Of a stretch of 64,000 nt of DNA, positions 5,407 to 64,000 are shown piece by piece (position 1 is the stretch's first letter; each line of letters opens with the position of its first letter). Made by a program: the position numbers and the translations under genes. The notes beneath the pieces are model-generated. The model made no database searches and was not told the origin of the DNA. It saw only the letters and a list, made by a program, of their open reading frames with translations. The stretch is from Klebsiella pneumoniae. GTDB taxonomy: Bacteria > Pseudomonadota > Gammaproteobacteria > Burkholderiales > UBA3065. The stretch spans positions 54,866 to 118,865 of the forward strand of contig CAMDGF010000001.1 of the NCBI GenBank assembly GCA_945897555.1, in the 5' to 3' direction.

Positions 5407-6956
5407 GCATCACCGTCTACGTCCCCTGCGACTCGAGCGCACTTTCGCTCGGCGCCGAGAAAACAGCCACCGCCATCGCTGCCGAAGCCGCCCGTCGCGG
5501 TGCCGACATCCGCATCGTGCGCAATGGCTCGCGCGGCCTGTTCTGGCTCGAGCCGATGGTCGAGGTCGAGACCCCGGCCGGCCGCGTCGCCTACGGCCCG
5601 GTACAGCCCAAAGACGTGTCGGGCCTCTTCGAAGCCGGCTTCCTCACCGGCGGCAAGCACGCCCTATCGCTGGGCTTGACCGAAGGCATCGCCTACCTGA
5701 AGAACCAAGAGCGTCTCACCGCCGCTCGCGTCGGTTTGGGCGACCCGCTCTGCCTCGACACCTACGCCGCGCACGGCGGCTGGCAGGGCCTCAAGAACGC
5801 AGTGGCCATGTCCGGCGCCGACGTCGTCAAGGAAGTCACCGAATCCGGCCTGCGCGGCCGCGGCGGCGCGGCCTTCCCCACCGGCATCAAGTGGAACACC
5901 GTGCTCAACACCCCGGGCACGCAGAAGTACGTGGTCTGCAACGCCGACGAGGGTGACTCGGGCACCTTCTCCGACCGCATGCTGATGGAAGGCGACCCTT
6001 ACACCCTGGTCGAAGGCATGACCATCGCCGGTGTGGCGGTAGGTGCCACTCAGGGTTACATCTACCTGCGCTCGGAATACCCTCACGCCTTCAAGACGCT
6101 GCAAGAAGCCATCCGCCGCGCCCGCGAGGCCGGCTGGCTGGGCACTGATGTGGCCGGCTCGGGCAAGACCTTCGAGCTCGAGGTGCGGCTGGGTGCCGGC
6201 GCCTACATCTGCGGTGAAGAGACCAGCCTGCTGGAGAGCCTCGAGGGCAAACGCGGCATCGTCCGCTTCAAGCCGCCGCTGCCGGCCATCGAGGGCCTGT
6301 TCGGCAAGCCCACCGTCATCAACAACGTCATCTCCCTGTGCTCGGTGCCGGTGATCCTGGCCAAGGGCGGCAAGCACTATCAGGACTTCGGCATGGGCCG
6401 TTCGCGCGGCACCCTGCCCTTCCAGCTCACCGGCAACATCAAGCATGGCGGCTTGGTCGAGAAAGCGTTCGGCCTCACGCTCAACCAGCTGCTTTACGAC
6501 TACGGCGGCGGTTCTGCCACCGGTCGGCCGATCCGCGCCGTGCAAGTGGGTGGCCCGCTGGGCGCTTACGTCCCCGAGTCGCAGTTCGACCTGCCGCTCG
6601 ACTACGAAGCTTTCAGCAAGGTCAACGCGATGATCGGCCACGGCGGCGTGGTGGTGTTCGACGACGCCGTCGATATGGCGGCGCAGGCGCGTTACGCCAT
6701 GGAGTTCTGCGCCATCGAATCGTGCGGCAAGTGCACGCCTTGCCGCATCGGCTCGACGCGCGGCACCGAGGTGATGGACAAGATCATCCAAGGTATCGAT
6801 GTCGAGGCCAATATCGCGCTGATGCGCTCGCTGTGCGACACCATGCTCAATGGCTCGCTGTGCGCGCTCGGCGGCATGGCGCCCTACCCCGTCCTGTCTG
6901 CGCTCAACCATTTCCCCGAGGACTTCGTGCGTGTGCACGAGGCCGCGGCTGCCTGA
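5403..6956 (+). CDS. fdsB: NAD-dependent formate dehydrogenase beta subunit (NuoF-like, FMN/NAD/4Fe-4S)
   Basis: 517 aa. GLRGRGGAAFPTG and ESCGKCTPCR motifs. ATGA overlap with fdsG. Confidence 0.9.
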   Translation: MSITVYVPCDSSALSLGAEKTATAIAAEAARRGADIRIVRNGSRGLFWLEPMVEVETPAGRVAYGPVQPKDVSGLFEAGFLTGGKHALSLGLTEGIAYLKNQERLTAARVGLGDPLCLDTYAAHGGWQGLKNAVAMSGADVVKEVTESGLRGRGGAAFPTGIKWNTVLNTPGTQKYVVCNADEGDSGTFSDRMLMEGDPYTLVEGMTIAGVAVGATQGYIYLRSEYPHAFKTLQEAIRRAREAGWLGTDVAGSGKTFELEVRLGAGAYICGEETSLLESLEGKRGIVRFKPPLPAIEGLFGKPTVINNVISLCSVPVILAKGGKHYQDFGMGRSRGTLPFQLTGNIKHGGLVEKAFGLTLNQLLYDYGGGSATGRPIRAVQVGGPLGAYVPESQFDLPLDYEAFSKVNAMIGHGGVVVFDDAVDMAAQARYAMEFCAIESCGKCTPCRIGSTRGTEVMDKIIQGIDVEANIALMRSLCDTMLNGSLCALGGMAPYPVLSALNHFPEDFVRVHEAAAA

Positions 6957-6966
6957 GGAGGCTCCC

Positions 6967-9828
6967 ATGTCACTGCCCCGCGATGTCGATCACGGCACCC
7001 CCGCCCGCGAATCCGAAAAACTGGTCACCCTGAGCATCGATGGCGTCGAGGTCTCGGTCCCCGCCGGCACCTCGGTGATGCGTGCCGCGCAGGATGCCGG
7101 CAACGCCATCCCCAAGCTGTGCGCCACCGACAGCCTCGAGCCTTTCGGCTCCTGCCGCCTGTGCCTCGTCGAGATCGAGGGCCGCCGCGGCTACCCCGCC
7201 TCTTGCACCACGCTGGTCGAGCCCGGCATGCAAGTGACCACGCAGTCGCCCAAGCTCGCCGAGATCCGCAAGGGCGTGATGGAGCTCTACATCTCCGACC
7301 ACCCGTTGGACTGCCTGACCTGCTCGGCCAATGGCAACTGCGAGCTGCAGGACATGACCGGCGTGGTCGGCCTGCGCGAGGTGCGCTACGGCTACGAGGG
7401 CAAGAACCACTTCGACGTCCGCTCCGGCACGGTCAAGGATTTCTCCAACCCCTACTTCGCCTATGACCCGAGCAAGTGCATCGTTTGCAACCGCTGCGTG
7501 CGTGCCTGCGAAGAGACCCAAGGCACCTTCGCGCTGACCATCTCCGGCCGCGGCTTCGAGTCGCGCGTGTCGCCGGGCATGGATCAGCCGTTCATGGATT
7601 CCGAGTGCGTAAGCTGCGGCGCCTGCGTGCAGGCCTGCCCGACCGCCACCCTGATGGAGAAGTCGGTGATCGAACACGGTCAAGCCGAGAAAAGCACCAT
7701 CACCACCTGCGCCTACTGCGGTGTGGGGTGCTCGTTCAAGGCCGAGACCAAGGGCAACCAGGTGGTGCGCCTGGTGCCCAACAAGAACGGCCACGCCAAC
7801 CACGGGCACTCGTGCGTCAAGGGCCGCTTCGCTTTCGGCTACGCCACCCACAAGGACCGCATCACCACACCAATGATCCGCCAGAGCATCGACGATCCGT
7901 GGCAGGAGGTGAGCTGGGAGGTGGCGATCAATCACGCTGCCAGTGAGATCAAGCGTATCCAGGGCAAGTATGGCAAGCACTCGGTCGGCGGGATCGTCTC
8001 CAGCCGCTGCACCAACGAGGAAGGCTATCTGGTGCAAAAGCTGGTCCGCGCTGCCTTTGGCAACAACAATGTCGACACCTGCGCGCGCGTCTGCCATTCG
8101 CCGACCGGTTATGGGCTGAAGCAGACCCTCGGCGAGTCGGCTGGCACCCAGACCTTCGATTCGGTGCGGAAGTCCGACGTCATCATGATCATCGGCGCCA
8201 ACCCGTCGGCCGGCCACCCGGTGTTCGCCTCGCAGATGAAGCGCCGCCTGCGCGAGGGGGCCAAGCTGATCGTCATCGACCCGCGCGTCACCGAAAGTGT
8301 CTCCGGCCCGCACTACAAGGCCGACTACCACTTGCAGCTCAAGCCCAGCACCAACGTCGCCATCATCAACTCGCTGGCGCACGTGGTGGCCACCGAAGGC
8401 CTGATCAAGGAAGCCTTCGTCGCCGAGCGTTGCGAGGCCGACTCGTTCCAGGTGTGGCTCGACTTCATCCGCAAGCCCGAAAACTCACCGGAGGCAATGG
8501 AAGCCATCACCGGCGTGCCGGCCGAGCAGGTGCGCGGCGCCGCGCGCCTCTACGCCACCGGCGGTAATGCCGCCATCTATTACGGCCTGGGCGTGACCGA
8601 ACACAGCCAAGGTTCGACCATGGTCATCGGTATCGCCAACCTCGCCATGGCCACCGGCAACATCGGCCGCGAGGGCGTGGGCGTGAACCCGCTGCGCGGC
8701 CAAAACAATGTTCAAGGCTCGTGCGACATGGGCTCGTTCCCGCACGAGCTGCCGGGCTACCGCCACGTGTCGGATGCCGCCACCCGTGCGCTGTTCGGCA
8801 AGGAATGGGGCGTCACCCTGCACGACGAGCCGGGCCTGCGCATCCCGAACATGTTCGAGTCGGCGATGGACGGCACCTTCAAGGCCCTCTACTGCGAAGG
8901 CGAGGACATCGTCCAGTCCGACCCCAACACCCAGCACGTGGAAGCCGCCTTGCGTGCCATGGAGTGCGTCATCGTCCAGGACCTGTTCCTCAACGAGACC
9001 GCCAAGTTCGCGCACGTCTTCCTGCCGGGTTCGAGCTTCCTTGAGAAGAACGGCACGTTCACCAACGCCGAACGCCGCATCTCGCCGGTGCGCAAGGTCA
9101 TGAAGGCACTCGCCGGCTATGAGGACTGGCAGGTCACCCAGATGTTGTCGAACGCGCTGGGCTACCCGATGCACTACAAGCACCCTTCGGAGATCATGGA
9201 CGAGATCGCGCGCCTGACGCCGACCTTCCACGGCGTGAGCTACGCCAAGATCGACCGGCTGGGCAGTATCCAGTGGCCGTGCAACGACGCGCATCCGGAA
9301 GGTACGCCGATCATGCACATCGACGCCTTTGTGCGCGGCAAGGGCCGCTTCATGCCGACCGCCTATGTGCCCACCGACGAGCGCACCAACCGCGATTTCC
9401 CGCTGGTGCTCACCACCGGCCGCATCCTGTCGCAGTACAACGTCGGTGCGCAGACCCGTCGCACCGAGAACTCGCGCTGGCACGAGGAAGACATCCTCGA
9501 CCTGCACCCGGCAGATGCCGAGGAGCGTGGCATCAAGGACGGTGACTGGGTCGGCATCGCCAGCCGTGCCGGCACCACCGTGTTGCGCGCCAACATCAGC
9601 GACCGCCTGCAACCGGGCGTGGTCTACACCACGTTCCACCATCCGTTCTCTGGCGCCAACGTGATCACCACCGAGAACTCGGACTGGGCCACCAATTGCC
9701 CCGAGTACAAGGTCACGGCGGTGCAGGTGACCAAGGTGACCCAGCCCTCCGACTGGCAAGAGCGCTACCGCAAGTTCAGCGAGCAGCAACTCAGCAAGCT
9801 GCCCAAGCGTCAGAAGGAGACCGTGTGA
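6967..9828 (+). CDS. fdsA: NAD-dependent formate dehydrogenase alpha subunit (Mo-bisPGD, Fe-S)
   Basis: The track ORF opens at 6850, but the ATG at 6967 (MSLPRDVDHG..TLSIDGVEV) follows the fdsB stop. It has a 2Fe-2S/4Fe-4S N-terminus plus a molybdopterin oxidoreductase body. Confidence 0.9.
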   Translation: MSLPRDVDHGTPARESEKLVTLSIDGVEVSVPAGTSVMRAAQDAGNAIPKLCATDSLEPFGSCRLCLVEIEGRRGYPASCTTLVEPGMQVTTQSPKLAEIRKGVMELYISDHPLDCLTCSANGNCELQDMTGVVGLREVRYGYEGKNHFDVRSGTVKDFSNPYFAYDPSKCIVCNRCVRACEETQGTFALTISGRGFESRVSPGMDQPFMDSECVSCGACVQACPTATLMEKSVIEHGQAEKSTITTCAYCGVGCSFKAETKGNQVVRLVPNKNGHANHGHSCVKGRFAFGYATHKDRITTPMIRQSIDDPWQEVSWEVAINHAASEIKRIQGKYGKHSVGGIVSSRCTNEEGYLVQKLVRAAFGNNNVDTCARVCHSPTGYGLKQTLGESAGTQTFDSVRKSDVIMIIGANPSAGHPVFASQMKRRLREGAKLIVIDPRVTESVSGPHYKADYHLQLKPSTNVAIINSLAHVVATEGLIKEAFVAERCEADSFQVWLDFIRKPENSPEAMEAITGVPAEQVRGAARLYATGGNAAIYYGLGVTEHSQGSTMVIGIANLAMATGNIGREGVGVNPLRGQNNVQGSCDMGSFPHELPGYRHVSDAATRALFGKEWGVTLHDEPGLRIPNMFESAMDGTFKALYCEGEDIVQSDPNTQHVEAALRAMECVIVQDLFLNETAKFAHVFLPGSSFLEKNGTFTNAERRISPVRKVMKALAGYEDWQVTQMLSNALGYPMHYKHPSEIMDEIARLTPTFHGVSYAKIDRLGSIQWPCNDAHPEGTPIMHIDAFVRGKGRFMPTAYVPTDERTNRDFPLVLTTGRILSQYNVGAQTRRTENSRWHEEDILDLHPADAEERGIKDGDWVGIASRAGTTVLRANISDRLQPGVVYTTFHHPFSGANVITTENSDWATNCPEYKVTAVQVTKVTQPSDWQERYRKFSEQQLSKLPKRQKETV

Positions 9829-33439: not shown

Positions 33440-33519
33440 TCTGGCGCAAACCCAAAGCGTCCGTGTGGCCGGAGACTACACAGACTATCGATAAGAAGAC
33501 AGCTGACGGAGAACAAACC

Positions 33520-43310: not shown

Positions 43311-43849
43311 TTGCGCATCTGTTCAATGGAGTCGCGCATCGCCTGCACGGTGTTCTTGAGTTGAAGATTCTCGGCCTCGATGCGCTGAATGGCTGATTGC
43401 ACCGTCTGGTCGCGCTCGGCGCGCTCGGCGTCGAGCCGGTCGCGCATCGACTGGGCCAGTTCGCGCATCTGCTTGAGTTCGGCAGCATACCGTTGCGTGG
43501 TGGACTGTATCGCCTCTTCGGTGGCGCGGTGTGCCGCCTCGAGCGCGTCGCGCATGGTCTGCACCGTCTCGCGCAGTTGCCGCATCTCGTCGGCTTGCGC
43601 TGCGACGGCAGCCTGCACATGACTCTCCTCCTGCCGTCGCTGCGCCTCCAGCGAGTCACGCATGGCCGCAATGGTCGCCTTGAGTTGGGCGACCTCGCGA
43701 TCGTGGCGCAACTGCAGATCTTCGAAAGACACCGTTGTGTCCGGCGCTACGCTAGTAGACACTGTTGCCCTGATGGAGGCGTGAGGATTCCTAAGATATC
43801 CGGTCGTTGCTTGATTTAGCAAGGCTCGTCCCGATCTGTCATCGGTCAC
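43307..43849 (-). CDS. coiled-coil protein with four internal (V/A)Q(A/T/S)MRD-x-(L/I)(E/D) repeats, function unknown
   Basis: The ORF stop overlaps the cyclase ATG (ATGA) and the repeat part has high GC3. The start is uncertain: GTG at 43849, with alternative GTGs at 43762 and 43732. Confidence 0.55.
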   Translation of the reverse strand: MTDDRSGRALLNQATTGYLRNPHASIRATVSTSVAPDTTVSFEDLQLRHDREVAQLKATIAAMRDSLEAQRRQEESHVQAAVAAQADEMRQLRETVQTMRDALEAAHRATEEAIQSTTQRYAAELKQMRELAQSMRDRLDAERAERDQTVQSAIQRIEAENLQLKNTVQAMRDSIEQMRK

Positions 43850-44987: not shown

Positions 44988-46133
44988 CTACTCCTCTTCG
45001 GCGACCGGTGCTGGCGCATAGCCGGTCTCCCAGTCTGGTAGACCGACCTTCACCAGCGCCGGATCGGGTCGAGGATGGTTCGATGGGAGCGTGCGAACCT
45101 CGCCACTGGTATCGACACCGCCGCGCCGCCAGAACTCCGGCCAGTCGCTTTTCATGGTCACGCCATAAAGTGGCTTGTAGGTCCCTTTGTGGCAGGTGGC
45201 GCATGCCACCTTTGGGCCATCACCCTCGGCGCTGAGGCGGTAGTCGGGAAACAAGCCCTGCAGCGGCATGAGGTAATTGACGTTGAGGCTGCGCACCATG
45301 CGGATGCCATACCAAGCGGTGATGCGCTGTGGCGAACTCTGTTCCCACCGCGCCAGCGCGCGGGTGTTGTGGCAATAGTCGCAGTTCACCCCGAGCGACT
45401 TGGCCATGTAGATCATCAGCCCGTAGGTGTGCTCGGCCTTCTTCACCGACGTCGGGTTCGACCCGGCCAGCGGTTGCGTACCCTGCACGCGGATACTGCC
45501 CGGATCGGCCGACATGAGAAAGGTGGTGAGCGGATCGTTGGGCAAGGATGAGTTGCCGACCGTCGCCACGCCGGGTTCGTCTTGGCCATCGCGGTTGCCG
45601 AGCATACGCACCTGCTGCACTGGCCGCGAGAACCAATCGCCGCTGGGCACTGCCTGGCCGCGGTGGCAGGTCCAGCAGGTGACGCCCGTCGACCCGACGT
45701 GCTGGGTCCACTCATTGTTGATCGTGCGCGTCATCTGCAGCATTCGCCGTGCCACGACCTTGGTGTATTTCTCATCGGAGGCCATGTTCTTGGTGTTATG
45801 GCAGTAGACACAGCCTTCTTCGGGCGCCACCCAAGTGACGAACGCGGCCATCACTCGTGACAACTCGTTGACGCTGAGGTCCTGGAGAACCTGGATGTTC
45901 TTGTAGCGCTCGGTGATGGTGGGTTGGCCGATGATCGGCGGGTCTGCCGGATCCTCGGGCTCAGGGATGGCGTTGACTGGCCTGAGCGCATCGACCGCAG
46001 CGGGCTTGTACATCTGCACCAACCCGGTGCCGCGAAAGCCACTCTGCACCGGTTGTGTGGATTCGGTGAGCAGGTAGGCGAAGAACAGCACGCCGACAAA
46101 GGCAGCTGCGATTGCGGCAAAGACGCGGACCAT
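44988..46133 (-). CDS. pufC: photosynthetic reaction-centre tetraheme cytochrome c subunit family protein (PufC-like), N-terminal membrane anchor
   Basis: Start at MVRVFAAIAAAFVGVLFF, preceded by AAGGAGGAGA. Four CxxCH motifs (CVYCH, CWTCH, CDYCH, CATCH) with RC-cytochrome-type spacing and the FVTWVAPEEGCVYCHN motif. Confidence 0.85.
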   Translation of the reverse strand: MVRVFAAIAAAFVGVLFFAYLLTESTQPVQSGFRGTGLVQMYKPAAVDALRPVNAIPEPEDPADPPIIGQPTITERYKNIQVLQDLSVNELSRVMAAFVTWVAPEEGCVYCHNTKNMASDEKYTKVVARRMLQMTRTINNEWTQHVGSTGVTCWTCHRGQAVPSGDWFSRPVQQVRMLGNRDGQDEPGVATVGNSSLPNDPLTTFLMSADPGSIRVQGTQPLAGSNPTSVKKAEHTYGLMIYMAKSLGVNCDYCHNTRALARWEQSSPQRITAWYGIRMVRSLNVNYLMPLQGLFPDYRLSAEGDGPKVACATCHKGTYKPLYGVTMKSDWPEFWRRGGVDTSGEVRTLPSNHPRPDPALVKVGLPDWETGYAPAPVAEEE

Positions 46134-46191
46134 CTCTCCTCCTTGCCCGCCCGGATGCACGGCGGATCTGATCGGGCCTGAGTGGCCTCTA

Positions 46192-46235
46192 TGTATAGCT
46201 ATTGTGACGATTTATGCTGTCACGTCAACATGACA
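46192..46235. promoter_or_regulatory. two PpsR/CrtJ-type palindromes 8 bp apart overlapping a candidate promoter of the pufC-like gene
   Basis: 46218-46235 is TGTCACGTCAACATGACA (perfect TGT-N12-ACA) and 46192-46209 is TGTATAGCTATTGTGACG (TGT-N12-ACG). On the minus strand, TTGACG-N17-ACAATA falls inside the two sites. Confidence 0.5.
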
Positions 46236-46243
46236 GTCAGGGC

Positions 46244-46271
46244 AAAAAGAAGGGCCTCATGCCGAGGCCCC
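46244..46271 (-). terminator. rho-independent terminator after the HiPIP gene
   Basis: The minus strand reads GGGGCCTCGGCATGAGGCCC followed by TTCTTTTT. Confidence 0.7.
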
Positions 46272-46298
46272 GGAGAGAGACGGGAATCGATGAGCCGC

Positions 46299-46616
46299 TC
46301 AGGCGTTCTTGACGGCCTTGAAGTTCTTGCACCAGCCGCCGGCCGGGGTGTGACGCTCAAAGAACGAGCATTCGGCGTACTCATCGCCCGCCTTGCCCGC
46401 CCACAACTGGCACTTGCTGCATTGCTGTTCAGCGGTCCAGCGCTTGTACTTGGCCTTGTCGACCTCCTCGGTCTTGAGCTTGAAACCCATCGATTTGGCG
46501 TACGGGTCGGCTTCGGACAGCTTCTCGCTGGCGGCCTGGGCGACCTGCGGCAGCAGGCTCGCAGCAGCCACGCCGGCCACTGCCTTGATCATGAAGGTTC
46601 TGCGGGACTGCTTCAT
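46299..46616 (-). CDS. high-potential iron-sulfur protein (HiPIP), Tat signal
   Basis: 105 aa. Twin-arginine SRRTFM. Four Cys in HiPIP spacing (CSKC...C...GGWC). Confidence 0.9.
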   Translation of the reverse strand: MKQSRRTFMIKAVAGVAAASLLPQVAQAASEKLSEADPYAKSMGFKLKTEEVDKAKYKRWTAEQQCSKCQLWAGKAGDEYAECSFFERHTPAGGWCKNFKAVKNA

Positions 46617-46664
46617 CTGGATACTCCTGACAGGTGATTAGAAAGATCGATGCGGGTGAAGCGC

Positions 46665-47273
46665 TCAGGGCCGCGGCGCGCGCACCAGCGACACACCCTC
46701 GGCACGACGGACCAGTCGCACATGAAGACGCTCGCCAGGCCTGCCGATGCGCACGCCGTCGCCACCGAAACTGAGTGCAAAGGCCGCCAGCTCGGGGCCC
46801 TCCACCAGCCTGCGCGAAGCGCTCCAGTAAAAACCCTCTGCGGTCGCCGGGAACGCATCGAGGTTGATCCGCGGGTCGCGGCAATTCACCTCGCTGATGC
46901 TCGCCAGCTCGCGCAGATTGGGAAGGCGCCAATCGGCATAGAAGAGATCGCCACGGTCGTTGACGTCGCGCACCCAAGCCTCTGCCGCAGCCCAGTCGAG
47001 GTCGGCTGGCAGGCCTCGGCAAACAGAATCACGCCACATCTGTCCGGCTGAACACCTCGCCCAGTGAAGCCCGGTGCGCCGGTCAGTCAGAGTGCCGTCG
47101 CCATGGTCCTCGAAATCGGCCAAAGTCGAACTAGGAATGAACTGTTCGCTGCAGGTTTGCGCTGCAACACCGGCCGGGTGCAAACACCCGGCCAGGCACA
47201 GCCACACAACGCCAAACCAGCTACTTGGTGTCAAAACCGATGCCCGACGGCTTGGACGGGAAGCCCTTGCCAT
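46665..47273 (-). CDS. DUF1566 (Lcl C-terminal domain) lipoprotein
   Basis: Lipobox LAGC after a hydrophobic stretch. DWRLPNLRELASI motif typical of DUF1566. The 5' end overlaps the cytochrome gene by up to 53 nt, so the start is uncertain. Confidence 0.65.
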   Translation of the reverse strand: MARASRPSRRASVLTPSSWFGVVWLCLAGCLHPAGVAAQTCSEQFIPSSTLADFEDHGDGTLTDRRTGLHWARCSAGQMWRDSVCRGLPADLDWAAAEAWVRDVNDRGDLFYADWRLPNLRELASISEVNCRDPRINLDAFPATAEGFYWSASRRLVEGPELAAFALSFGGDGVRIGRPGERLHVRLVRRAEGVSLVRAPRP

Positions 47274-47730
47274 ACTTGACCGGGATCGGTTTGGTCTGCT
47301 GAGCAGCCAAGCCCGGCTGGATCGGCAGGCCTCGATGCAGGTTCATAGCGTAGGCGTACATCGCCGTCATGTCCTTGCTCTCAAGCCCCAAGGCCTTACC
47401 TGCCTGCGGGTTCTGGATGCACCAGTTCACCATCTCGCCCCATTGCACCACCCGGTTCATGTTCTGGATGTACTTCGGGAAGGTCTGCGGGTTGGAAGCG
47501 CCCGCATCGGGATGGCAGTTGCCGCAAGCCAGACCGTTGCTGGTCATGTCAGGGTTGGACCCGTGCCAGAGGTTGTAGCCCAACTCGACCAACTCCAGCA
47601 GCTTGGCGTTCTGCTCGTCCAACTCCGCCTTGCCGAAAGGCTCACGGGCCTGGGCAGCACCGGAGGCCAACGCTGCCATCACGGCAGCGGGAATGGCGAG
47701 GGCAAGTGTTCTTTTGAATGTCGCTCTCAT
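47221..47730 (-). CDS. periplasmic monoheme c-type cytochrome
   Basis: 169 aa. Sec signal ending AAQA, a single CGNCH, then FPKY...VNWCIQNP. Confidence 0.8.
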   Translation of the reverse strand: MRATFKRTLALAIPAAVMAALASGAAQAREPFGKAELDEQNAKLLELVELGYNLWHGSNPDMTSNGLACGNCHPDAGASNPQTFPKYIQNMNRVVQWGEMVNWCIQNPQAGKALGLESKDMTAMYAYAMNLHRGLPIQPGLAAQQTKPIPVKYGKGFPSKPSGIGFDTK

Positions 47731-47747
47731 GTCGGTGTGCTCCGTGA

Positions 47748-48758
47748 TCAGGCCTTGAGGCCCTTCTTGAGGAAGGGGGTCAGAGAGTCGGCGAAGGGCT
47801 GGTACTCGACCAGCTTGCTACCGCCGGCCTTGACGTTCACCGCCAGCGTGCCCATGCCATCGACCTCGTTCCCTGGGTCGGCGCGGTTCATCTGCGAACC
47901 GGGATAGGCCAACTTGACCGGCGGATAAGGCCAAGGCCACGAGGTGCTCATGGCGCCGATCGAGGTCATGTTGCCGATCTTGTTGTAGAGCGTCTGGTGC
48001 ACATGGCCGTGGATCGAGGTGAAGTTCTCGAAGCGCGACAGGATCTCGCGGATCTGCGGACCGTCCACGGTCTGGAAATTCCAGCGCGGGTAGTAGTCCC
48101 ACAGGGGCGAGTGGGTAAAGGTGACGATGGGCGTGTCCGAGGAAAGCTTGGCGACGTCTTTCTTCAGCCAGTCCAGTTGCTCGGCACCCACCCCCCACAA
48201 GCCGCCGATCGGGCCTTCGAGCATCTCCATGGCTTCCATACGCTGGCGCGGGGACATCTGCTTGGCGGTCCAGAAATCCGGCACCAGGATGGAGTTCATG
48301 CCGATAAAGTGCACGCCCTTGTGGTCGAACGACCAGTAATCACGGCCGAACATGCCCTTCCACGCATCGCCCATGTCGACGTACCAGTCGTGTTCACCGG
48401 GGATGACCACCAGCTTGGTGTCGAGAGCAGCCAGCAGCTTCTTGCCCTTGGCGAGCTGATCCTCGGTACCGTTCTGGGCGATGTCGCCACCGTAAAGCAC
48501 GAAGTCTGGCTTGATCGCCATGTTGTTGACCTGCTCGACGGCATCCTCGAGCTGGCGATCGAACTTGTGGTCCTCGCCGCTGTAGAGGTGCGAATCGGTG
48601 ATCATTGCGAAACGGAACGGCGAGACCTTCTTGCCCGGCTGGGCGTGGGCCAGGTCGAATACGCCGAGGTTGATGCCCGCAGCGCTGCCGACGATGGTCG
48701 ACAGCCCGGCCTTGCCGGTGAGCTGCAGGAATTCGCGTCTGTCCTTCTTGTGATCCAT
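47748..48758 (-). CDS. Tat-exported calcineurin-type metallophosphoesterase
   Basis: Start at MDHKKDRREFLQ (twin-arginine motif), preceded by AAGGAGA. Motifs DSH, GGD, GEHD, THSP and HGHVH. Confidence 0.8.
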   Translation of the reverse strand: MDHKKDRREFLQLTGKAGLSTIVGSAAGINLGVFDLAHAQPGKKVSPFRFAMITDSHLYSGEDHKFDRQLEDAVEQVNNMAIKPDFVLYGGDIAQNGTEDQLAKGKKLLAALDTKLVVIPGEHDWYVDMGDAWKGMFGRDYWSFDHKGVHFIGMNSILVPDFWTAKQMSPRQRMEAMEMLEGPIGGLWGVGAEQLDWLKKDVAKLSSDTPIVTFTHSPLWDYYPRWNFQTVDGPQIREILSRFENFTSIHGHVHQTLYNKIGNMTSIGAMSTSWPWPYPPVKLAYPGSQMNRADPGNEVDGMGTLAVNVKAGGSKLVEYQPFADSLTPFLKKGLKA

Positions 48759-48865
48759 AACCTTCTCTCCTTGATTCCTCACGTCGTTCTTTTAAAAAAA
48801 CCATGCCCCGGTGGACGAAAAGGCCTGTTGTTATGGTTTTGAAGGGGGTGTGTACCCTAAGGGTC

Positions 48866-48941
48866 GTTCCGTGGCCTATGGAACATAGGTTAGCAATTTC
48901 ATATTGTCCATAAGAGATTGATTCCAATGCGATTCTGGAAT
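48866..48941. promoter_or_regulatory. two dyad-symmetric elements in the divergent soxY / metallophosphoesterase control region
   Basis: GTTCC-N9-GGAAC at 48866-48884 and ATTCCA-N9-TGGAAT at 48921-48941, inside an AT-richer 297-bp intergenic region. Confidence 0.25.
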
Positions 48942-49055
48942 GCGTCTAGACACAAGGGCCGAGCGACTCCCCGTCAAGCGGGCTCGACGACTGGTCTGGG
49001 AACGGCAACCGCAGGAACTGCCTCCAACCCTGACACGACAAAGGCTTGCCAGACG

Positions 49056-49529
49056 ATGTCTGCCCTCTCTTCTGCCGCAACGAGCGCCTCCCGCCGCCGC
49101 GCGCTGCAAATCCTCGCCACGCTGGCGGGTGCCATCGGTGCCGCTTGGGCATCCGCCGCTCTGGCCGGACTGCCTCGGCGCAGCTTTGAGCCCGAACCGT
49201 TCGACGTGGCTCTGCGCAAGCTGGGCGTCACCGCGGCCGAGCCCTCTTCGGCGATCGAGTTGCTGCTGCCCGACGTCGCTGAGGACGGCGCCGCTGTGCA
49301 GATGAGCCTGAGCACCACGTTGGCGGCCCGCCGCGCCCTTTTGCTGGTGCGGCGTAACCGCATACCCCTGGTGGCTGAATTCGCGTTCCCGCCCGGCGCG
49401 CTGCCATTCGTCGCCACGCGCATCAAGTTGGCCGAAGATTCCGAGGTGCTGGCCTTGGTCGAAGCCGACGGACGTTGGTATTCAGCCAGCCGCCAGGTCA
49501 AAGTGACGCTGGGGGGTTGCGGTGGTTAG
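49056..49529 (+). CDS. soxY: sulfur carrier protein SoxY (Tat signal, C-terminal GGCGG)
   Basis: Start at MSALSSAATSASRRRALQ. PDVAEDGAAV motif. The protein ends ...VKVTLGGCGG. Confidence 0.85.
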   Translation: MSALSSAATSASRRRALQILATLAGAIGAAWASAALAGLPRRSFEPEPFDVALRKLGVTAAEPSSAIELLLPDVAEDGAAVQMSLSTTLAARRALLLVRRNRIPLVAEFAFPPGALPFVATRIKLAEDSEVLALVEADGRWYSASRQVKVTLGGCGG

Positions 49530-49537
49530 GGGGCGAT

Positions 49538-49849
49538 ATGCCTGAAGCGATGCGCATCCGCGCGGTGGAAAAAGACGGGCTGGTGGATGCTCGGGTGCAG
49601 ATCCGTCACGACATGGAGTCGGGCTCGCGCCGAAACGAGTCTGGCGAGGTGGTGCCAGCCTGGTACATCACCGGATTCACGGTGGAGGTGGACGGGCGCG
49701 AGGTGTTCGCCGCGCAACTCGGTCCCGGTGTGTCGCGCAATCCGCTGCTGCACTTTCGCTTCAGGGACGCCCGCAAGGGCCAGATGTTGGTGGCGCGCTG
49801 GCAGGACAGCCGTGGCGAGACGCGCGAAGACCGGGGGGTTATCGATTGA
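49538..49849 (+). CDS. soxZ: SoxZ, partner of SoxY
   Basis: 103 aa starting 8 nt after soxY. IRHDMESGSRRNESGEVVPAWYI matches the SoxZ signature H-x-M-E-(S/T)-G. Confidence 0.85.
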   Translation: MPEAMRIRAVEKDGLVDARVQIRHDMESGSRRNESGEVVPAWYITGFTVEVDGREVFAAQLGPGVSRNPLLHFRFRDARKGQMLVARWQDSRGETREDRGVID

Positions 49850-57035: not shown

Positions 57036-59006
57036 TCAGGCCGTGGCCGGCACAGCCTCCTGCAGGCGACGCACGCTGGCCTCGATACCGGGGGCATCGA
57101 GGCCCTCCATGGCCAGCAAGGTGGCGTGGTCGCCATGATCGATGAAACGGTCGGGCAGGCCAAGGTGGTGGATCGGCACCATGGGGATGCGGCTGCCGAG
57201 CGCCACCAGACCTTCGGCGCAGGCCGAGCCAGCCCCGCCCTGCACCACATGCTCCTCGACCGTGACCAGCAGGTCGTGGTGATGGGCCGCCCACGCCAGG
57301 GTGTCGAGGTCAAGCGGCTTGACGAAGCGCATGTTGATCACCGTGGCGTCGAGCGCCTCAGCCGCCTTGAGCGCTGGCGAGACCATCGACCCGAAGGCGA
57401 GGATGGCGACACGGGCGCCTGCTGCCGCGACGCCTGTGCGCAACACCTCCGCCTTGCCGACCGGGAGCGGCTCGAGCGTGTCGGTGGCGTCGATGCCGGC
57501 GCCCGCGCCACGTGGATAGCGCACTGCGCTCGGCCCGTCGTAGGCGAGCCCTGTACTGAGCATGCGCCGGCACTCGAGCTCGTCCTTGGGCGCCATCACC
57601 AACATGTGCGGGATGCAACGCAGGAAGCTGTAGTCGTAGATGCCGGCATGGGTGGCGCCATCGGCGCCGACCAACCCGGCACGATCGAGCGCGAACATCA
57701 CCGGCAGCTTCTGCAAAGCGACATCGTGGATGAGCTGGTCGTAGGCGCGCTGCAGGAAGGTGCTGTAGATCGCAACCACGGGCTTCAGGCCTTCGCAGGC
57801 GATGCCAGCGGCAAACGTCACCGCGTGCTGCTCGGCGATGCCAACGTCGTAGTAGCGATCAGGGAAGCGCTCGGCGTACTCGACCATGCCGGAGCCCTCG
57901 CGCATGGCTGGCGTGATGGCCACCACGCGCGGATCGGCACTCGCAGCGTCGCACAACCAACGGCCGAACACCTGCGAATAGGTCGCCTTGGCCGGCGCGG
58001 CGGGCTTGATGCCAGCCGCCGGATCGAACTTGCCAGGGCCGTGGTAGAGGATGGGATCGGCCTCGGCACGGTCGTAGCCAGCCCCCTTGCGCGTCACCAC
58101 ATGGAGGAACTGCGGGCCCTTGAGCCGGCGCAGGTTGATCAGCGTCGGCACCAGTGCATCGAGGTCGTGTCCGTCGATCGGGCCGACATAGTTGAAACCG
58201 AACTCCTCGAACAGGGTGCCGGGGGTGACAAAACCCTTGGCAGTCTCTTCGACGCGGTGCGCGAGTTCGCGCATCGATGGCAGGCCGCTGAGCAGTTGTT
58301 TGCCGAGCTCCTTGGTGCTGGTGTAGAGCCGGCTCGAGAGCAGCCGGGTGAGGTACTTGGAGAGCGCACCCACCGGCGGACTGATCGACATCTCGTTGTC
58401 GTTGAGGATCACCAGCAGGTCGATGTCGCGCTCGATGCCGGCATTGTTGAGCGCCTCGAAAGCCAGCCCGGCACTCATGGCGCCATCGCCGATCACGGCG
58501 ACGTGCCGACGCCGCCCCGAGCCCTCATGCTCACCCTTCTGCCGCGAAGCGATGGCCATGCCCAATGCAGCCGAGATGCTGGTCGATGAGTGGGCGGTGC
58601 CAAAGTGGTCGTACTCACTCTCACAACGCCGCGGAAAGCCCGACAGCCCTTTGAGCTGACGCAGGCTGCCCATGCGCTCGCGGCGACCGGTGAGGATCTT
58701 GTGCGGGTAGCTCTGATGCCCGACATCCCAGATCAGGCGGTCATACGGCAGGTTGAAGACGTGGTGGATGGCCACCGTGAGTTCCACAGTGCCCAGATTC
58801 GATGACAGATGCCCCCCGGTGCTCGCCACCGAGCGCAGCAGGAACTCGCGCAGTTCGGCAGACAGCTGCTTGAGCTGCGCACGACTCAGCGCGCGCACCT
58901 GCGCCGGCGCGTTGACCTTGTCCAGGACCGATTCCAGATCATCCATGGGCCCGAATTGTGCGCCATCCAGGCGAGTGAATGTTGCGGCGCGATCCATCGT
59001 GTTCAT
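57036..59006 (-). CDS. dxs: 1-deoxy-D-xylulose-5-phosphate synthase
   Basis: 656 aa. [12 protein letters not shown] and IGDGAMSAG (ThDP) motifs. The start overlaps the puhE stop (ATGA). Confidence 0.92.
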
Positions 59007-59803
59007 GTCACCTCCATACCCAGGCGATCGCGCTCACGACGGTCACGCCGCGAGCCCATGCCCCAATGCCAAAGCCGCTCGAAGGGAATCGGCAGCACCA
59101 TGAACCAATGCTCGAGAATGGCAAGGCTCAGCAACATGGCTGCCAGCGATGCGGCTACCGGCTGAAAGTCGCCGGCACGCTGGTTCCAGGCGAACTCCCA
59201 GCCTGCCATCGCGGCCGCCGTGGCAAGCGTCACCACCACCGGGAACAGCGGGTTGATCGGCTTGCGCTGAAAGTAGGTGGGCAGGTAGCGCAGATGCAGC
59301 GGCAAGAAGGTCTCCGAAAGATTGCGCACGCCGAGGAAGACATTGAGCTTGGCGCTCTGGCGCATCACCCAGAAGATCAGGTAGGTGCACAGACCGACAC
59401 GGTTACTGCCGCCGGCTGTGGCGAGGAATACACCCAGGCCGAGCACCAGCAGGGCGATCTCGTGGTGCAGCACCACCTGCAGGGCAAAGCCCGCCCGCTG
59501 CCAGCCGCGCGAGCCGATCGGCAGGTCGATGCGCCGCGGCCCGGTGACATACCCGAGCAGAAAAGCGATCTCCTGCCATGCCCAGATGAGGAGAGCGCAG
59601 CTGAACGCACAATAGGCACCGGCCTCGGTGGCCATATCGCGCGATGCAGCCAAGCCCCAGAAGGCAGCCACCGCGAGCCAGCTGGCGAGCGTGAACGTGA
59701 GGCGGTAGGTGCTGCGTGGCAAACGGTTGAGCCAGATGATGACGCCGGTGCCGATCCACCATGCGAACAGGGTGAACACGGCGGGAAGCAAGAGGGTGCT
59801 CAT
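59003..59803 (-). CDS. puhE: putative photosynthetic complex assembly protein PuhE
   Basis: Start at [21 protein letters not shown] 266-aa multi-TM protein located after acsF, as in other photosynthesis gene clusters. Confidence 0.8.
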
Positions 59804-59846
59804 CGCCCGGGTATCCTCGCCGTCGGTGCGGCCACGCGACAGACCG

Positions 59847-60932
59847 TCACCACACCGGCTCGAGGCGCGGGTCGGCGGGCAGCTCGCGCGAGCGCACCGG
59901 AAGGAAGTACATGCGGACGAAGGTCGCGGCGGCACCCAGCGCAAGACCGGCGCGGCGCACTTGGTTCCACGGTCCACCCACCCTGCGCGCCTCGTCCATC
60001 GCCTCGGCGATCAGGCGCATCTTCTCCAGCCCGGCGCGGAAGCGTGCGTCTTCGAAGTTGAGCGTATCCGGGAACACCTGTTGTGAGATCTCCCGGGTGA
60101 CGCGGAACACCTCCATGTCGTATTCGGTCGGATCGAGCCCGAGCGACTTGTGGAACACCGGCCGCGCGTGGTCACGCACATACATGGTGGCGAACACCGC
60201 CAGGGTAAAGAAGCGGATCCAGAGGCGGTTGAGGCCACGGGTCAGGCTCGGGTCCGCGCGCATCAGCAGGGCGAACGCCTCGCCATGCCGGAACTCATCG
60301 TTGCACCACTCGCGGAACCACCGGAAGATCGGGTGGAAGCACAGCTCAGGGTGCCGTTCGATCTTTCGGTAGATGGTGATGTAACGCGCGTAGCCGATCT
60401 TCTCCGAAAGGTAGGTCGCGTAGAAGATGTACTTGGGCTTGAAGTAGGTGTACTTCTTGGCCTTGACCAGAAAGCCCAGATCGACCCCGATACCGAAATC
60501 CTTGAGCCACTGGTTGATGAAACCGGCGTGGCGCGATTCGTCGCGCGCCATGTAACCGAACAGGTCCTTCATGTCGGGGTTCTTGACCCGCCGACGGATC
60601 TCGGCGTAGAGCACACAGCCAGAGAACTCCGCCGTGACCGAACTGATCATGAAATCAACGAATTCCTGATAGAGCTCGTCGGGCAAGTGCGAGTAGTCCT
60701 GCCCGAGCATGTCGACCGGCCGCTCGAAGTGGCCGTTGTTGGGGTCGTCCCTGAACTCGGCCATCAGCGCATCCCACTGCTCGCGGATCGAACCGATGTC
60801 GATGCGGTCCATGGCGTCGAAATCGGTGGTGTAGAAACGCGGATCGAGGATGGTGTTCTTCTGCGCCTGGCGCGTCGAATCGTTGATGCTCTCAGGCGTC
60901 TCGAGCTGGCGGGTCTCGGTCATGGCGTTCAT
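59847..60932 (-). CDS. acsF: aerobic Mg-protoporphyrin IX monomethyl ester oxidative cyclase
   Basis: Start at MNAMTETRQ (361 aa). Two di-iron E..E/D-x-x-H motifs (DESRH, DEFRH). Confidence 0.92.
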
Positions 60933-61303
60933 GGCTGCTGGCCTCCGTTGGGCACGCTGGACACGGCGTTGGATGGTCGTGCGGCCTTGGGCCGCGGATA
61001 GTTGCGTGAGGTTGAGAAGCGGCGCTCGGAGAAGCTCACCTCGTAGAGCAGGTCGAGTTCGAAACGGGCGAGGGCAAAGGTCTTGAGGCGCTGCCACCAC
61101 GATGCACGCGAAACCGTGGCACGACGTTCAACCGCGTAACGCTCACCCCAGTTGATGCGGGTGGGCGGGTTATGCACCAGCACCTCGTCGCCAGGGCCGA
61201 TCTCGACCCCTTTGAGGATGACGTGCGCGTAGCAGTCGTCGGCGGTATGCGCCAACTCGACACGACATGGCACTGTGGATACGCGAGGGTCACGGTCGCT
61301 CAT
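60929..61303 (-). CDS. small conserved-position ORF between puhC and acsF (124 aa), function unknown
   Basis: ATGA overlaps at both ends (with the puhC stop and the acsF start). GC-rich third codon positions. Confidence 0.65.
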
Positions 61304-61869
61304 CGCGCGGCCTTTGCAACGTGCGCCCCAGGCTGCGGCTCGACCAGCATCCGCGCGAACGCGCCGGCATTGGTGTGGCCGAAGGCTGTGAGTTCGACGC
61401 GCTGCCCGGTGGCCAGGTCGGTGAGCACGAGCAGACCGGCGTCGAGCGAGAGCTGGAAGGGCTCGGCCACACCCTTGCCAAGCCGCCGACGCTCACGCGC
61501 CATGCCACGCAGGATGCCGCGGATGAAACCGGCCTCACCGACCACGCGATACACCTCGATGCCGCTGTCGGCATCGAGCACACGGACCGATTTGTCCCCG
61601 GCGTCGAGAAAGCGCAACTTGCGCTGGCCGACGGTCTTGAGCACCGGTGGATCTACGGTGGCGACGGTCATCGGCACGCTTGCAGAAGCCAGCGTCGCCC
61701 CCCCAGCACTGTGAAGCTGCAGACCCAGCCAGAAACCGAGCGCGGGAAGGACGACGACCGCTGCCACCAGCCAGAGTGGCATCACCCTGACGATCGGATA
61801 GCGCGCGGCGAGGCGCGAACGCCAGCCACCGTTCGCGTCCACGCCCGCAGCAGCGGCCAGGCGCGTCAT
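61300..61869 (-). CDS. puhC: photosynthetic complex assembly protein PuhC
   Basis: ATG at 61869 overlaps the puhB stop. One TM helix, then LRFLDAGDKSVRVLDADSG..GFIRGILRGMARERR, typical of PuhC. An alternative ATG lies at 61782. Confidence 0.7.
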   Translation of the reverse strand: MTRLAAAAGVDANGGWRSRLAARYPIVRVMPLWLVAAVVVLPALGFWLGLQLHSAGGATLASASVPMTVATVDPPVLKTVGQRKLRFLDAGDKSVRVLDADSGIEVYRVVGEAGFIRGILRGMARERRRLGKGVAEPFQLSLDAGLLVLTDLATGQRVELTAFGHTNAGAFARMLVEPQPGAHVAKAAR

Positions 61870-62564
61870 GCCGGTTCTGCCCCGGCCAGAGCGTCGCCGG
61901 TGCCGCGCTTTGGCCTGACCGTCGCGGCCGCTCGGGCCGGCGCGGCTGCTGAGCGTTGCTGCACGACCGACCACGCTTGCCCGAGCAGCGTCGCCACCCG
62001 GCTGGCGTCTGGCAGACAGCGCAGCGCCGGCTCGGGTTGGGTGATGCGCCACGGGCGCGCATGTGGCCACAGGTGCGGGTAGGCGATGCGCTGGCCATCG
62101 GTCAGACGCAGACAGATGTCCCCGGCACCCTGCGCCTGCTGGCGCAGATCGGCTGCGGCCACCTGGCGCAAAGGGATGTTGTAAGTGATACCCAGCACCA
62201 TGCCGATGCGCATCACCACTCGCTTGTCAGTGAGCGTGTACAGCGTGGTGCGCGAGACCGCGACGGCCAGCCCGAAGAGCATGGCCAGCCCGATCAGCGG
62301 CAAGGGCGCGATCTTGAGTGTGGCGATGAGTGCCTCTATCGGGGTCGCGCCATCATGCCAATCCGCGATCAGCTTCCATGCCAGCAGAAGGCCGAAGTAG
62401 GCTGCAACGGCACGGACATGGAAGACTTCGCGCGCCACCAGCCCGATGTCGGGCGCACCCTGCCACAACAGGGTCTCACCGGCCGGAAGTCGCTCTGGCA
62501 GCCCGGGCTCGGGCTCCCAGCCATGCTCGGGGCCGGAGAAATGCTTGTGGTCGAGCCCGCTCAA
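61866..62564 (-). CDS. puhB: photosynthetic complex assembly protein PuhB
   Basis: LPAGETLLWQGAPD motif and two TM helices. The proposed TTG start at 62564 overlaps the puhA stop (TTGA). Start uncertain. Confidence 0.7.
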   Translation of the reverse strand: MSGLDHKHFSGPEHGWEPEPGLPERLPAGETLLWQGAPDIGLVAREVFHVRAVAAYFGLLLAWKLIADWHDGATPIEALIATLKIAPLPLIGLAMLFGLAVAVSRTTLYTLTDKRVVMRIGMVLGITYNIPLRQVAAADLRQQAQGAGDICLRLTDGQRIAYPHLWPHARPWRITQPEPALRCLPDASRVATLLGQAWSVVQQRSAAAPARAAATVRPKRGTGDALAGAEPA

Positions 62565-63328
62565 ATCAGCGGCTCCGCACGGCCCGGCTCGGCGTAGAGC
62601 AGACCACCGCCGAGGTAACCGAAGATCTTTTCCTCTTCGAGCCAAGTGACCTGATCCGGGCTGGCAGTGCGGGGGATGCCGGCGATCTGGCCGCCGAGCA
62701 CAGCACGCACCGTGACACGGTCGCGCTCGACCCGGCACAGGGTCATCGGCACCAGCACGCGATGGCCACCGGCATCGATCTCGACGTAGCGGAACAGGTG
62801 CTCCGAGCGATCGACCCAGAGGTCGGTCACCTTGCCACCCACCACGCCGTCGGCGCCCACCACGTCAAAGCCACGCGGGTCGGTCTCGCCATGATCGATG
62901 GCAAAGCCCTCTGGCTCGGCGACGCGCAAGGGCACGATGCGGACCGCGCCCTCGTAGGTGGTGTCAGGGCGATCGGCACGGGCTGTCCAGGCGCCAGGGC
63001 CGATACCGTCGTACATCGGGTTACCGGTCGGCTCGATCGGTGCGCCGGCAAAGCCTGCGATCGGCTCTGCTGCCGGTGCCGGCTGCTCCCAGTCACGCAT
63101 GTGCGGCGCGAGGTACTCGCTGCCATCCTGCATGACATAGCGCTTGGGCTTGGGCATGGCGATGATGCCGGGGTCTCGGCGACCATTGCGCAGGCCCGAA
63201 TCGAGGGGAAAGCCTTCGCGCTTGCTCTCGTAGATCAGGTAATAGCAGAGGCCAAAAAAGAACACCCAGAACATGTAGATGGCCAGTTGGGCCACATCGA
63301 AGTAGCCGAGGATCGCTCCGTTTCCCAT
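62561..63328 (-). CDS. puhA: photosynthetic reaction centre H subunit
   Basis: 255 aa (FDVAQLAIYMFWVFFFGLCYYLIYESKREGFPL). Confidence 0.92.
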   Translation of the reverse strand: MGNGAILGYFDVAQLAIYMFWVFFFGLCYYLIYESKREGFPLDSGLRNGRRDPGIIAMPKPKRYVMQDGSEYLAPHMRDWEQPAPAAEPIAGFAGAPIEPTGNPMYDGIGPGAWTARADRPDTTYEGAVRIVPLRVAEPEGFAIDHGETDPRGFDVVGADGVVGGKVTDLWVDRSEHLFRYVEIDAGGHRVLVPMTLCRVERDRVTVRAVLGGQIAGIPRTASPDQVTWLEEEKIFGYLGGGLLYAEPGRAEPLI

Positions 63329-63350
63329 TTGTCTTCTCCTTGTCTGCCGG

Positions 63351-64000
63351 TCAGCCGGGGAATTCAGCCAGACCGAACTTGCCTACTGCGGGGGCCCCCT
63401 CCGCCCGGCGACTCCGCACCAGGGGACCGATGACGATCAAACCGCCGAACAAAAGCAACAACTCGAGGCCGTAGACCGTGCCATAGCCGGTCGACGGGTG
63501 ATCCATGGCCTCGCCCAGCACACCCGTGGTGGCGACCGCCGAGACCCAGTCGCGCAGGGCGCCACCGATGGCGATGGCAAGCCCCATGCAGGTCGCTTGC
63601 ACTGCGCCCCAGGCACCCAGAGCCATGCCGGTCAGGCCGTTCTCCTCAAGGCCCATCGCCGCGGTGAGTGTGCCGACCGAGAACAGCCCACCACCGAAGC
63701 CGATGAGCACCACACCCAGCCGGAACAAGGCCGGCGAGTCGAGCGGATCGGCAAAGATGACCGCGGCGAACGCCCACAGGCCACACACCAGGCCGAGGGC
63801 GGCGATGCGATGCGCGTTCACCGAAGCGGCAAGCATGCGCGCAGCCGCCATGAACGCCACCAATGCGCCACCAGCCATGAGCGCCGTGAGCGCCGATGTG
63901 GCCCCGACCGAAAGGCCGAGGACCTCCGCGCCATAGGGCTCAAGCACGATGTCCTGCATATTGAAAGCAGCGGTGCCAAGGCCCAGGGCGACGAGGAAAC
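63351..64000 (-). CDS. lhaA: LhaA/PucC-family MFS protein (LH1 assembly), C-terminal part; runs off the window
   Basis: Multi-TM C-terminal half directly upstream of puhA. The reading frame stays open to the window edge. Confidence 0.8.
   Translation of the reverse strand, partial: FLVALGLGTAAFNMQDIVLEPYGAEVLGLSVGATSALTALMAGGALVAFMAAARMLAASVNAHRIAALGLVCGLWAFAAVIFADPLDSPALFRLGVVLIGFGGGLFSVGTLTAAMGLEENGLTGMALGAWGAVQATCMGLAIAIGGALRDWVSAVATTGVLGEAMDHPSTGYGTVYGLELLLLFGGLIVIGPLVRSRRAEGAPAVGKFGLAEFPG

Follow-up and report, generated by a model that had tools for sequence, protein, structure and literature searches.

Gene content of the locus

The window (the whole stretch of DNA analysed here, 64,000 nucleotides long) carries on its minus strand a gene that we refer to as pufC2. 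It lies close to a HiPIP gene and a Sox-like gene cluster and at some distance from the photosynthesis genes:

44988..46133, minus strand: pufC2, encoding a stand-alone reaction-centre-type tetrahaem cytochrome of 381 aa; convergent with an OYE-family gene
46299..46616, minus strand: HiPIP gene (PF01355), immediately upstream of pufC2; its product has a twin-arginine signal peptide
46665..48782, minus strand: context genes upstream of the HiPIP gene, for a periplasmic metallophosphoesterase, a SoxA/TsdA-type cytochrome c and an Lcl_C-domain protein (Pfam)
48918..49849, plus strand: soxY and soxZ (Pfam), divergent from the context genes
57036..64000, minus strand: edge of the photosynthesis gene cluster, with dxs, puhE, acsF, an unnamed ORF, puhC, puhB, puhA and lhaA (cut by the window end)

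Because the next gene downstream is convergent, pufC2 is monocistronic. Its product matches the Pfam family PF02276 with an E-value of 3e-120 and the PufC equivalog model NF040706 with 415 bits (cutoff 150), and its closest solved structure is 7xxf_C. The protein has four CxxCH motifs, at residues 108, 153, 251 and 311, and a predicted uncleaved membrane helix at the N-terminus, which contains no lipobox cysteine. The initial annotation had regarded the gene as pufC-like and as a genuine photosynthesis gene outside the photosynthesis gene cluster. The position outside the cluster is borne out by the distance of about 11 kb to its edge, which in this phototroph starts at about 57 kb. No other photosynthesis gene was found at positions 1-56 kb of the window, and the window contains no ppsR gene.

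A search for relatives of the PufC2 protein, with one genome scanned per species, found 532, and the loci of the best 80 of these 532 were kept for comparison (L001-L080). The four closest orthologs are 83-91% identical and come from freshwater betaproteobacterial genomes assembled from metagenomes. In the window and in L001-L027 (28 sequences), no pufM lies directly upstream of pufC2; most of L028-L079 have pufM. In a neighbour-joining tree, the 28 HiPIP-linked PufC sequences are monophyletic, with a mean identity of 64% within each PufC clade and 53% between them. Furthermore, the three closest genomes with data contain both copies of pufC (L001 and L056, L002 and L045, L003 and L029), L056 being a normal bchZ-pufLM-pufC locus. 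The missing pufM, the separate clade and the presence of both copies in the closest genomes show that pufC2 is a paralog and not the copy of the puf operon. In the sister genome, the puf operon is located about 42 kb from pufC2 (L056 versus L001), so that the photosynthesis gene cluster looks split.

The surroundings of pufC2 are conserved as well. The cluster at 46299-49849 of the window, which comprises the twin-arginine-exported metallophosphoesterase, the SoxA/TsdA-type monohaem cytochrome c, the Lcl_C-domain protein, SoxYZ, HiPIP and PufC2, is syntenic in most of L001-L027 (about 27 species representatives), with SoxYZ either inside the cluster or divergent from it. Of L001-L027, 24 have the HiPIP gene in the locus, in most cases immediately upstream of pufC2. 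Comparison of the metallophosphoesterase with solved structures was uninformative, since cyclic-nucleotide phosphodiesterases alone were matched, and weakly (E about 6e-5).

Downstream of pufC2, past the OYE-family gene, two further genes keep their place in L001-L004. In the window they lie at 40974-43849 (minus strand) and encode a 778-aa GAF-GAF-PAS adenylate/guanylate cyclase with TPR repeats and a 180-aa protein without a significant Pfam match. At 2404-3576 (plus strand), an ORF joins an N-terminal match to fatty-acid desaturases to part of an ISL3-family transposase at its C-terminus, which suggests an insertion-disrupted or fused gene.

Two palindromes in the pufC2 upstream region

The intergenic region between the HiPIP gene and pufC2 is 165 bp long and contains, on the minus strand, an element of 44 bp (46192-46235) with the following parts:

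46218..46235, minus strand: box 1, the distal PpsR-type box, TGTCATGTTGACGTGACA; both a perfect TGT-N12-ACA site and a dyad of the form TGTCA-N8-TGACA, overlapping the predicted -35 region
46210..46217, minus strand: 8-bp spacer between the boxes, GCATAAAT on the gene strand; its length is kept across orthologs, its sequence is not
46192..46209, minus strand: box 2, the proximal PpsR-type box, CGTCACAATAGCTATACA; a cGT-N12-ACA with five of the six defining bases, overlapping the predicted -10 region

Read on the plus strand, positions 46192-46209 are TGTATAGCTATTGTGACG, followed by the 8 bp ATTTATGC and by TGTCACGTCAACATGACA at 46218-46235; in the order of the gene strand, 46235-46192 is TGTCATGTTGACGTGACA-GCATAAAT-CGTCACAATAGCTATACA. 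The element consists of four half-sites (TGTCA, TGACA, cGTCA, aTACA), which follow each other at 13-bp intervals. They constitute a regular array with a period of 13 bp and alternating orientation, giving two 18-bp palindromes 8 bp apart. The binding site of PpsR/CrtJ is TGT-N12-ACA (PMC4452267), with TGTcaN8tgACA as its extended consensus (PMC2654016). Box 1 fits the extended consensus, and box 2 has five of the six defining bases, the mismatch being that of the cGT; the gap of 8 bp between them lies within the 8-9 bp of a compact PpsR promoter. The description of the two boxes and of their spacing in the initial annotation proved exact to the base.

Frequency of single and paired boxes

We ran the background scan that had been suggested together with that description on the window and on 689 kb of sequence (the window plus 80 related loci). 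Single perfect TGT-N12-ACA sites are uninformative as evidence, as the window contains 8 of them against 7.64 expected, which is chance level. Pairs with the 8-bp gap are rare: allowing at most one mismatch in total at a start-to-start offset of 26 bp, we found one in the window, where a first-order Markov model predicts 0.05 per 64 kb and, for 165 bp of intergenic sequence of the same composition, about 1e-4. In the 689 kb, 17 pairs have this offset, compared to 0-4 for every other offset between 18 and 60, and 15 of the 17 are located upstream of a pufC-like gene.

The chance frequency of single sites, and the probability of about 0.05 for one such pair in the window alone, would be compatible with a fortuitous origin of the pair in a relatively AT-rich intergenic stretch. 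Taken from the window alone, its rarity is thus only suggestive, and the comparative data have to decide.

Conservation of the element in orthologs

In an alignment of the upstream regions with those of the four closest orthologs, both boxes and the 8-bp gap are kept amid diverged flanking sequence. All four align with box 1 through a perfect TGT-N12-ACA, which recurs in more distant orthologs. The complete arrangement, two boxes with a gap of 8 bp, precedes the orthologous gene in 16 other species (L001-5, L016-21, L023-27), whose proteins are 57-91% identical to that of the window; no such pair was found upstream of pufC in L028-L080. Within the element, the columns TGT (1-3), GACA (15-18), G (28) and AC (42-43) are invariant across orthologs and TCA (29-31) and A (44) nearly so, which includes the GTCA and ACA ends of box 2. 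The spacer (columns 19-26) has no conserved base.

Because both boxes and their gap recur while spacer and flanks diverge, we judge the box pair to be real, and the arrangement, as read from these genomes, is common to many freshwater Burkholderiales. Coincidence would have to have placed the same pair at the same site with the same spacing in 16 other species with diverged flanks, and to have left no second such pair in the window; we consider this extremely improbable and, on the strength of the comparative sequence data, a chance origin of the pair appears effectively refuted.

About a quarter of the HiPIP-linked clade has no box (L006, L007, L008, L010, L013, L022). In four of these (L006, L007, L010, L013), pufC2 starts at most about 60 bp after the HiPIP gene and is probably co-transcribed with it. 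L009, L011, L012 and L015 have only the proximal box in perfect form, together with a distal site whose inner spacing is 9 bp.

One locus, L021, contains an additional pufM-like gene (7879-8957, minus strand), which is convergent to the PufC2 cluster and whose product is 76% identical to the PufM of L056. This orphan gene comes with a Shine-Dalgarno sequence and a double box of its own, TGTCAATTTACATTGACA-N7-TGTAAGAAAAGTATGACA, and no pufL was found in the 185 bp upstream of it before the end of the locus. Located beside the cluster and equipped with a double box, it would suggest a matched alternative pair of M and C subunits.

The predicted pufC2 promoter

Signals for transcription and translation predicted in the intergenic region are:

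46241..46271, minus strand: intrinsic terminator of the upstream HiPIP gene, GGGGCCTCGGCATGAGGCCC (46271..46251) and then a T run; also kept in the aligned orthologs
46201..46228, minus strand: predicted sigma-70 promoter, TTGACG (46228..46223), 16 nt, CACAAT (46206..46201)
46196..46223, minus strand: comparative alternative promoter from ortholog-conserved bases, -35 GTGACA (46223..46218) and -10 TAGCTA (46201..46196)
46136..46142, minus strand: Shine-Dalgarno sequence GGAGGAG, preceding the ATG at 46133; this purine-rich block is conserved in the alignment

The terminator of the HiPIP gene stands between this gene and pufC2, which implies that pufC2 has a promoter of its own. A consensus scan found TTGACG-16-CACAAT, with 9 of 12 consensus matches, as the sole site in the region (0.2 expected). 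The orthologs, in turn, keep promoter-like bases at a slightly different location, TTGACA at positions 13-18 of box 1 and TAnnnT at positions 9-14 of box 2, 16 nt apart, whose equivalents in the window are GTGACA and TAGCTA. On either reading of the predicted promoter, box 1 would cover the -35 and box 2 the -10 region. The initial annotation had likewise placed the boxes over -35 and -10, based on a TTGACG (46228..46223) and an ACAATA (46205..46200) 17 nt apart. Both hexamers are present as described and the predicted promoter does lie inside the boxes, but ACAATA is a poor -10 element, which matches TATAAT in one position and is one base off CACAAT. When the geometry of bchC's promoter in Rhodobacter capsulatus is superimposed on the element, the -10 comes to lie no more than 1 nt from the conserved TAnnnT, and transcription is predicted to start near 46188. 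For translation, the ATG at 46133 is the most likely start, and not the GTG at 46160, judging from the GGAGG ahead of it and from its alignment with the starts of the orthologs.

Part of the conservation is promoter signal, because TTGACA and TAnnnT are kept among orthologs. This raises the question of whether the conserved bases represent only a strong sigma-70 promoter (TTGACA, TAnnnT) with AT-rich sequence upstream, the TGT and ACA being incidental and no repressor being involved. The right half of box 1 is indeed TTGACA in many orthologs, with the TAnnnT of box 2 16 nt away. Several conserved columns, however, fall outside the -35 and -10 hexamers: the invariant TGT (columns 1-3) precedes the -35 hexamer by 10-12 nt, the conserved GTCA (28-31) is part of the spacer between the two hexamers and the ACA (42-44) follows the -10 hexamer. 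A promoter by itself would also leave the dyad symmetry and the regular 13-bp spacing of the half-sites unexplained, and the same flanking TGT and ACA are found at the bchF promoter described below. We therefore regard a promoter without an operator as very unlikely.

PpsR in the same species and its presumed boxes at bchF

We followed the photosynthesis gene cluster outward from the window, from PuhA to contig L081 (99.97% identical) and from there via BchN (100% identical) to contig L085, which belongs to the same species (99.1% identical to the window over 2.1 kb). The cluster continues in these contigs with bchMLHBNF, followed by ppaA and ppsR. On L085, divergent from bchF, a PpaA/AerR-type gene at 9162..8260, whose B12-binding product has 300 aa, adjoins the ppsR gene at 8263..6827. 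The ppsR product has 478 aa and the domain order PAS-PAS-PAS-HTH_8; it matches the PpsR equivalog model TIGR02040 with 466 bits (cutoff 275) and keeps the cysteine in the region of the DNA-binding helix (KLCIEAAL). A single 55.7-kb contig of the sister genome LLD_020 carries ppsR (L088) together with a boxed pufC2 (L003). On the ppsR side of L085 (1-9162), the last genes of the cluster are ppaA, ppsR, a 244-aa ORF that matches no Pfam family, crtD and crtC; beyond crtC follow genes for an RlmL-type methyltransferase and a hybrid histidine kinase.

To score potential boxes, we trained a weight matrix on the boxes of the orthologs only, leaving out the window. In the 64 kb of the window it ranked box 1 first (20.8 bits) and box 2 second (14.7 bits), with the next match at 9.7 bits, and in L085 its top two matches (22.4 and 17.5 bits) were boxes in the intergenic region between ppaA and bchF; these scores have to be read with the caveat that the matrix also rewards AT-rich, promoter-like sequence, which inflates the scores at any promoter in a GC-rich genome. 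The bchF boxes (L085 9381-9414) are fused with a 2-bp overlap, TGT-N12-A[CG]T-N12-ACA, and the second of them covers the -35 of a TTGACA-N17-TAGATT promoter. Boxes and promoter are conserved in four species (L085, L087, L088, L089), and the cGT variant of box 2 is also present in a bchF box. The centre-to-centre distance is 16 bp at bchF and 26 bp at pufC2, corresponding to roughly 1.5 and 2.5 helical turns. In R. capsulatus, bchF is a known target of CrtJ (PMC5362033). Upstream of the Sox-like/HiPIP operon of the window (48783-48917), no box match exceeded 6.3 bits, and upstream of pufB in the puf locus of the sister genome (L056) there was no box at 14 bits or more.

We conclude that 46192-46235 is probably a PpsR (CrtJ) double operator over the promoter of pufC2. 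The proposal of PpsR made in the initial annotation thus gains support at the sequence level: the same species has ppsR and ppaA, the motif recurs at bchF and the element is conserved in 16 other species.

Other regulators

A different regulator of similar specificity, either a second PpsR/CrtJ paralog or an unrelated helix-turn-helix protein, could bind to an operator of this kind. Paralogs are conceivable in this order: Roseateles has been reported to carry both ppsR and a crtJ homologue (PMC10037100), and in L052 and L076 the canonical pufC has a PpsR-like gene directly behind it. Nevertheless, in the contigs that we reached, the same species shows no PpsR-family gene other than the TIGR02040 equivalog beside bchF, the puf region of the sister genome (L056) contains no second copy and the same motif recurs at the promoter beside this very ppsR gene. 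A paralog would, moreover, still be a regulator of the PpsR type. We consider the involvement of another regulator unlikely.

A tblastn search of the 80 loci with a PpsR helix-turn-helix peptide had matches only in the distant L052, L069 and L048, and then L076; it found no PpsR-like gene in the puf regions of the sister genomes. In some Burkholderiales, a PpsR-like gene follows the canonical pufC directly (L052 5178-6605, L076 5209-6363, L069 8268-8891), and in L069 (Methylibium sp. Root1272) the next gene after it is a 726-aa ORF which, by eye, resembles a bacteriophytochrome.

FNR boxes (TTGAT-N4-ATCAA) are 14 bp long and LexA boxes (CTGT-N8-ACAG) 16 bp. A site of the FNR/CRP family or of the LexA type, which would place pufC2 under oxygen or SOS control without PpsR, might be suspected because the window encodes an Fnr-like regulator at 33436-34332 and because CTGTCA...TGACAG superficially resembles CTGT...ACAG. 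The half-sites at pufC2 are, however, 8 bp apart in an 18-bp palindrome, compared to 4 bp in FNR boxes, and on this spacing we reject the LexA type as well; no FNR box with up to two mismatches was found at the pufC2 promoter (46134-46298). We give this reading almost no credence.

The Fnr-like regulator itself (plus strand) scores 218 bits on the Fnr subfamily model, just under the cutoff of 228, and a TTGAT-N4-ATCAA-like sequence with two mismatches is located at 33436-33449, the start of its listed ORF. The whole window contains 16 such sequences with up to two mismatches where 7.7 are expected, a number reached in 1 of 100 shuffles. Most of them lie inside genes, and the excess may stem from codon composition.

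Proposed regulation of pufC2

Control of pufC2 by PpsR is well supported by these sequence comparisons, from which we also infer the binding, the sign of the regulation, its signal and the start of transcription. Under repressing conditions, PpsR dimers would bind both palindromes cooperatively and thereby shut out RNA polymerase. The B12-binding PpaA/AerR protein encoded beside ppsR might then lift the repression, in the way described for CrtJ and its partner AerR (PMC5362033), and pufC2 would thus be expressed together with the photosynthetic apparatus.

The initial annotation had envisaged oxygen or redox repression by PpsR. Control by PpsR agrees with our results, but an oxygen or redox signal is not established. 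PpsR of Rubrivivax gelatinosus bound boxes 8 bp apart equally well in oxidised and reduced form, and only a spacing of 9 bp gave redox dependence (PMC4452267); in addition, PpsR has been described as a repressor as well as an activator (PMC4452267, PMC5362033). For these reasons the signal and even the sign of the regulation are uncertain, and redox control of pufC2 via PpsR alone is doubtful, as all species seen keep the gap of the pufC2 boxes at 8 bp. This strict spacing would make pufC2 a natural test case for the reported difference between 8 and 9 bp.

A possible electron-input branch

The operator as such is of a textbook type; its value is that of a marker, which assigns to the PpsR regulon a gene that lies outside the photosynthesis gene cluster. 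Through its conservation, it would mark the whole clade of the second PufC, always linked to HiPIP and usually to the Sox-like cluster, as part of this regulon. In L016-18 and L021, pufC2 leads the cluster and the double box consequently heads all of it, which suggests a PpsR-controlled branch on the donor side of the photosystem. HiPIP is counted in the photosynthesis cluster of Roseateles and regarded as the main donor to the reaction centre in Rubrivivax (PMC10037100).

Given these connections, PufC2 might be the acceptor end of an undescribed electron-input branch under PpsR control, and not a spare copy. In this branch, a Sox-like periplasmic module, made up of the metallophosphoesterase, the SoxA/TsdA-type cytochrome, the Lcl_C-domain protein and SoxYZ, would feed HiPIP, and HiPIP would feed PufC2, which would serve the reaction centre as its alternative cytochrome subunit and allow light-driven oxidation of a sulfur compound in freshwater Burkholderiales. 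We put this forward tentatively, as a possibility that we lean somewhat against. It offers a lead on the electron supply to the reaction centre in aerobic or facultative phototrophic Burkholderiales and on alternative cytochrome subunits. In the searchable literature, we found no description of a second pufC, nor of PpsR control of HiPIP. Hence the regulation is familiar in kind, and what appears to be new is the controlled gene.

Comparison with known systems

PufC2 shares with the canonical PufC of pufBALMC operons its Pfam and NCBIfam family, the four haem-binding motifs and 50-55% sequence identity. It differs in having no preceding pufM, in its constant linkage to HiPIP and in forming a separate monophyletic clade. 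The anchor also differs, as the subclade of the window's PufC2 has a membrane helix whereas the canonical copy of the sister genomes has a lipobox cysteine.

The precedents from Rhodobacter and Rubrivivax to which the initial annotation referred agree with the published descriptions (PMC5362033, PMC4452267). At the bchC promoter of R. capsulatus, two TGT-N12-ACA palindromes with an 8-bp gap, located at -4..-21 and -30..-47 (PMC5362033), have the layout that the element and its predicted promoter show at pufC2, the upstream one covering -35 and the downstream one -10. In contrast to bchC, the operator predicted here belongs to a betaproteobacterium, and its target is a stand-alone cytochrome gene outside the cluster and not a bch operon.

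Rvi. gelatinosus also belongs to the Burkholderiales. Its pucB gene has paired boxes with a 9-bp gap over -35 and -10, which were footprinted by PpsR (PMC4452267). This species differs from the pufC2 loci in that redox-dependent binding is tied to the 9-bp spacing, as opposed to their uniform 8 bp. Its crtI operator, (TGa-N12-ACA)-N8-(cGT-N12-ACA), likewise footprinted by PpsR (PMC4452267), has both the 8-bp gap and the cGT variant that we observe in box 2 of pufC2.
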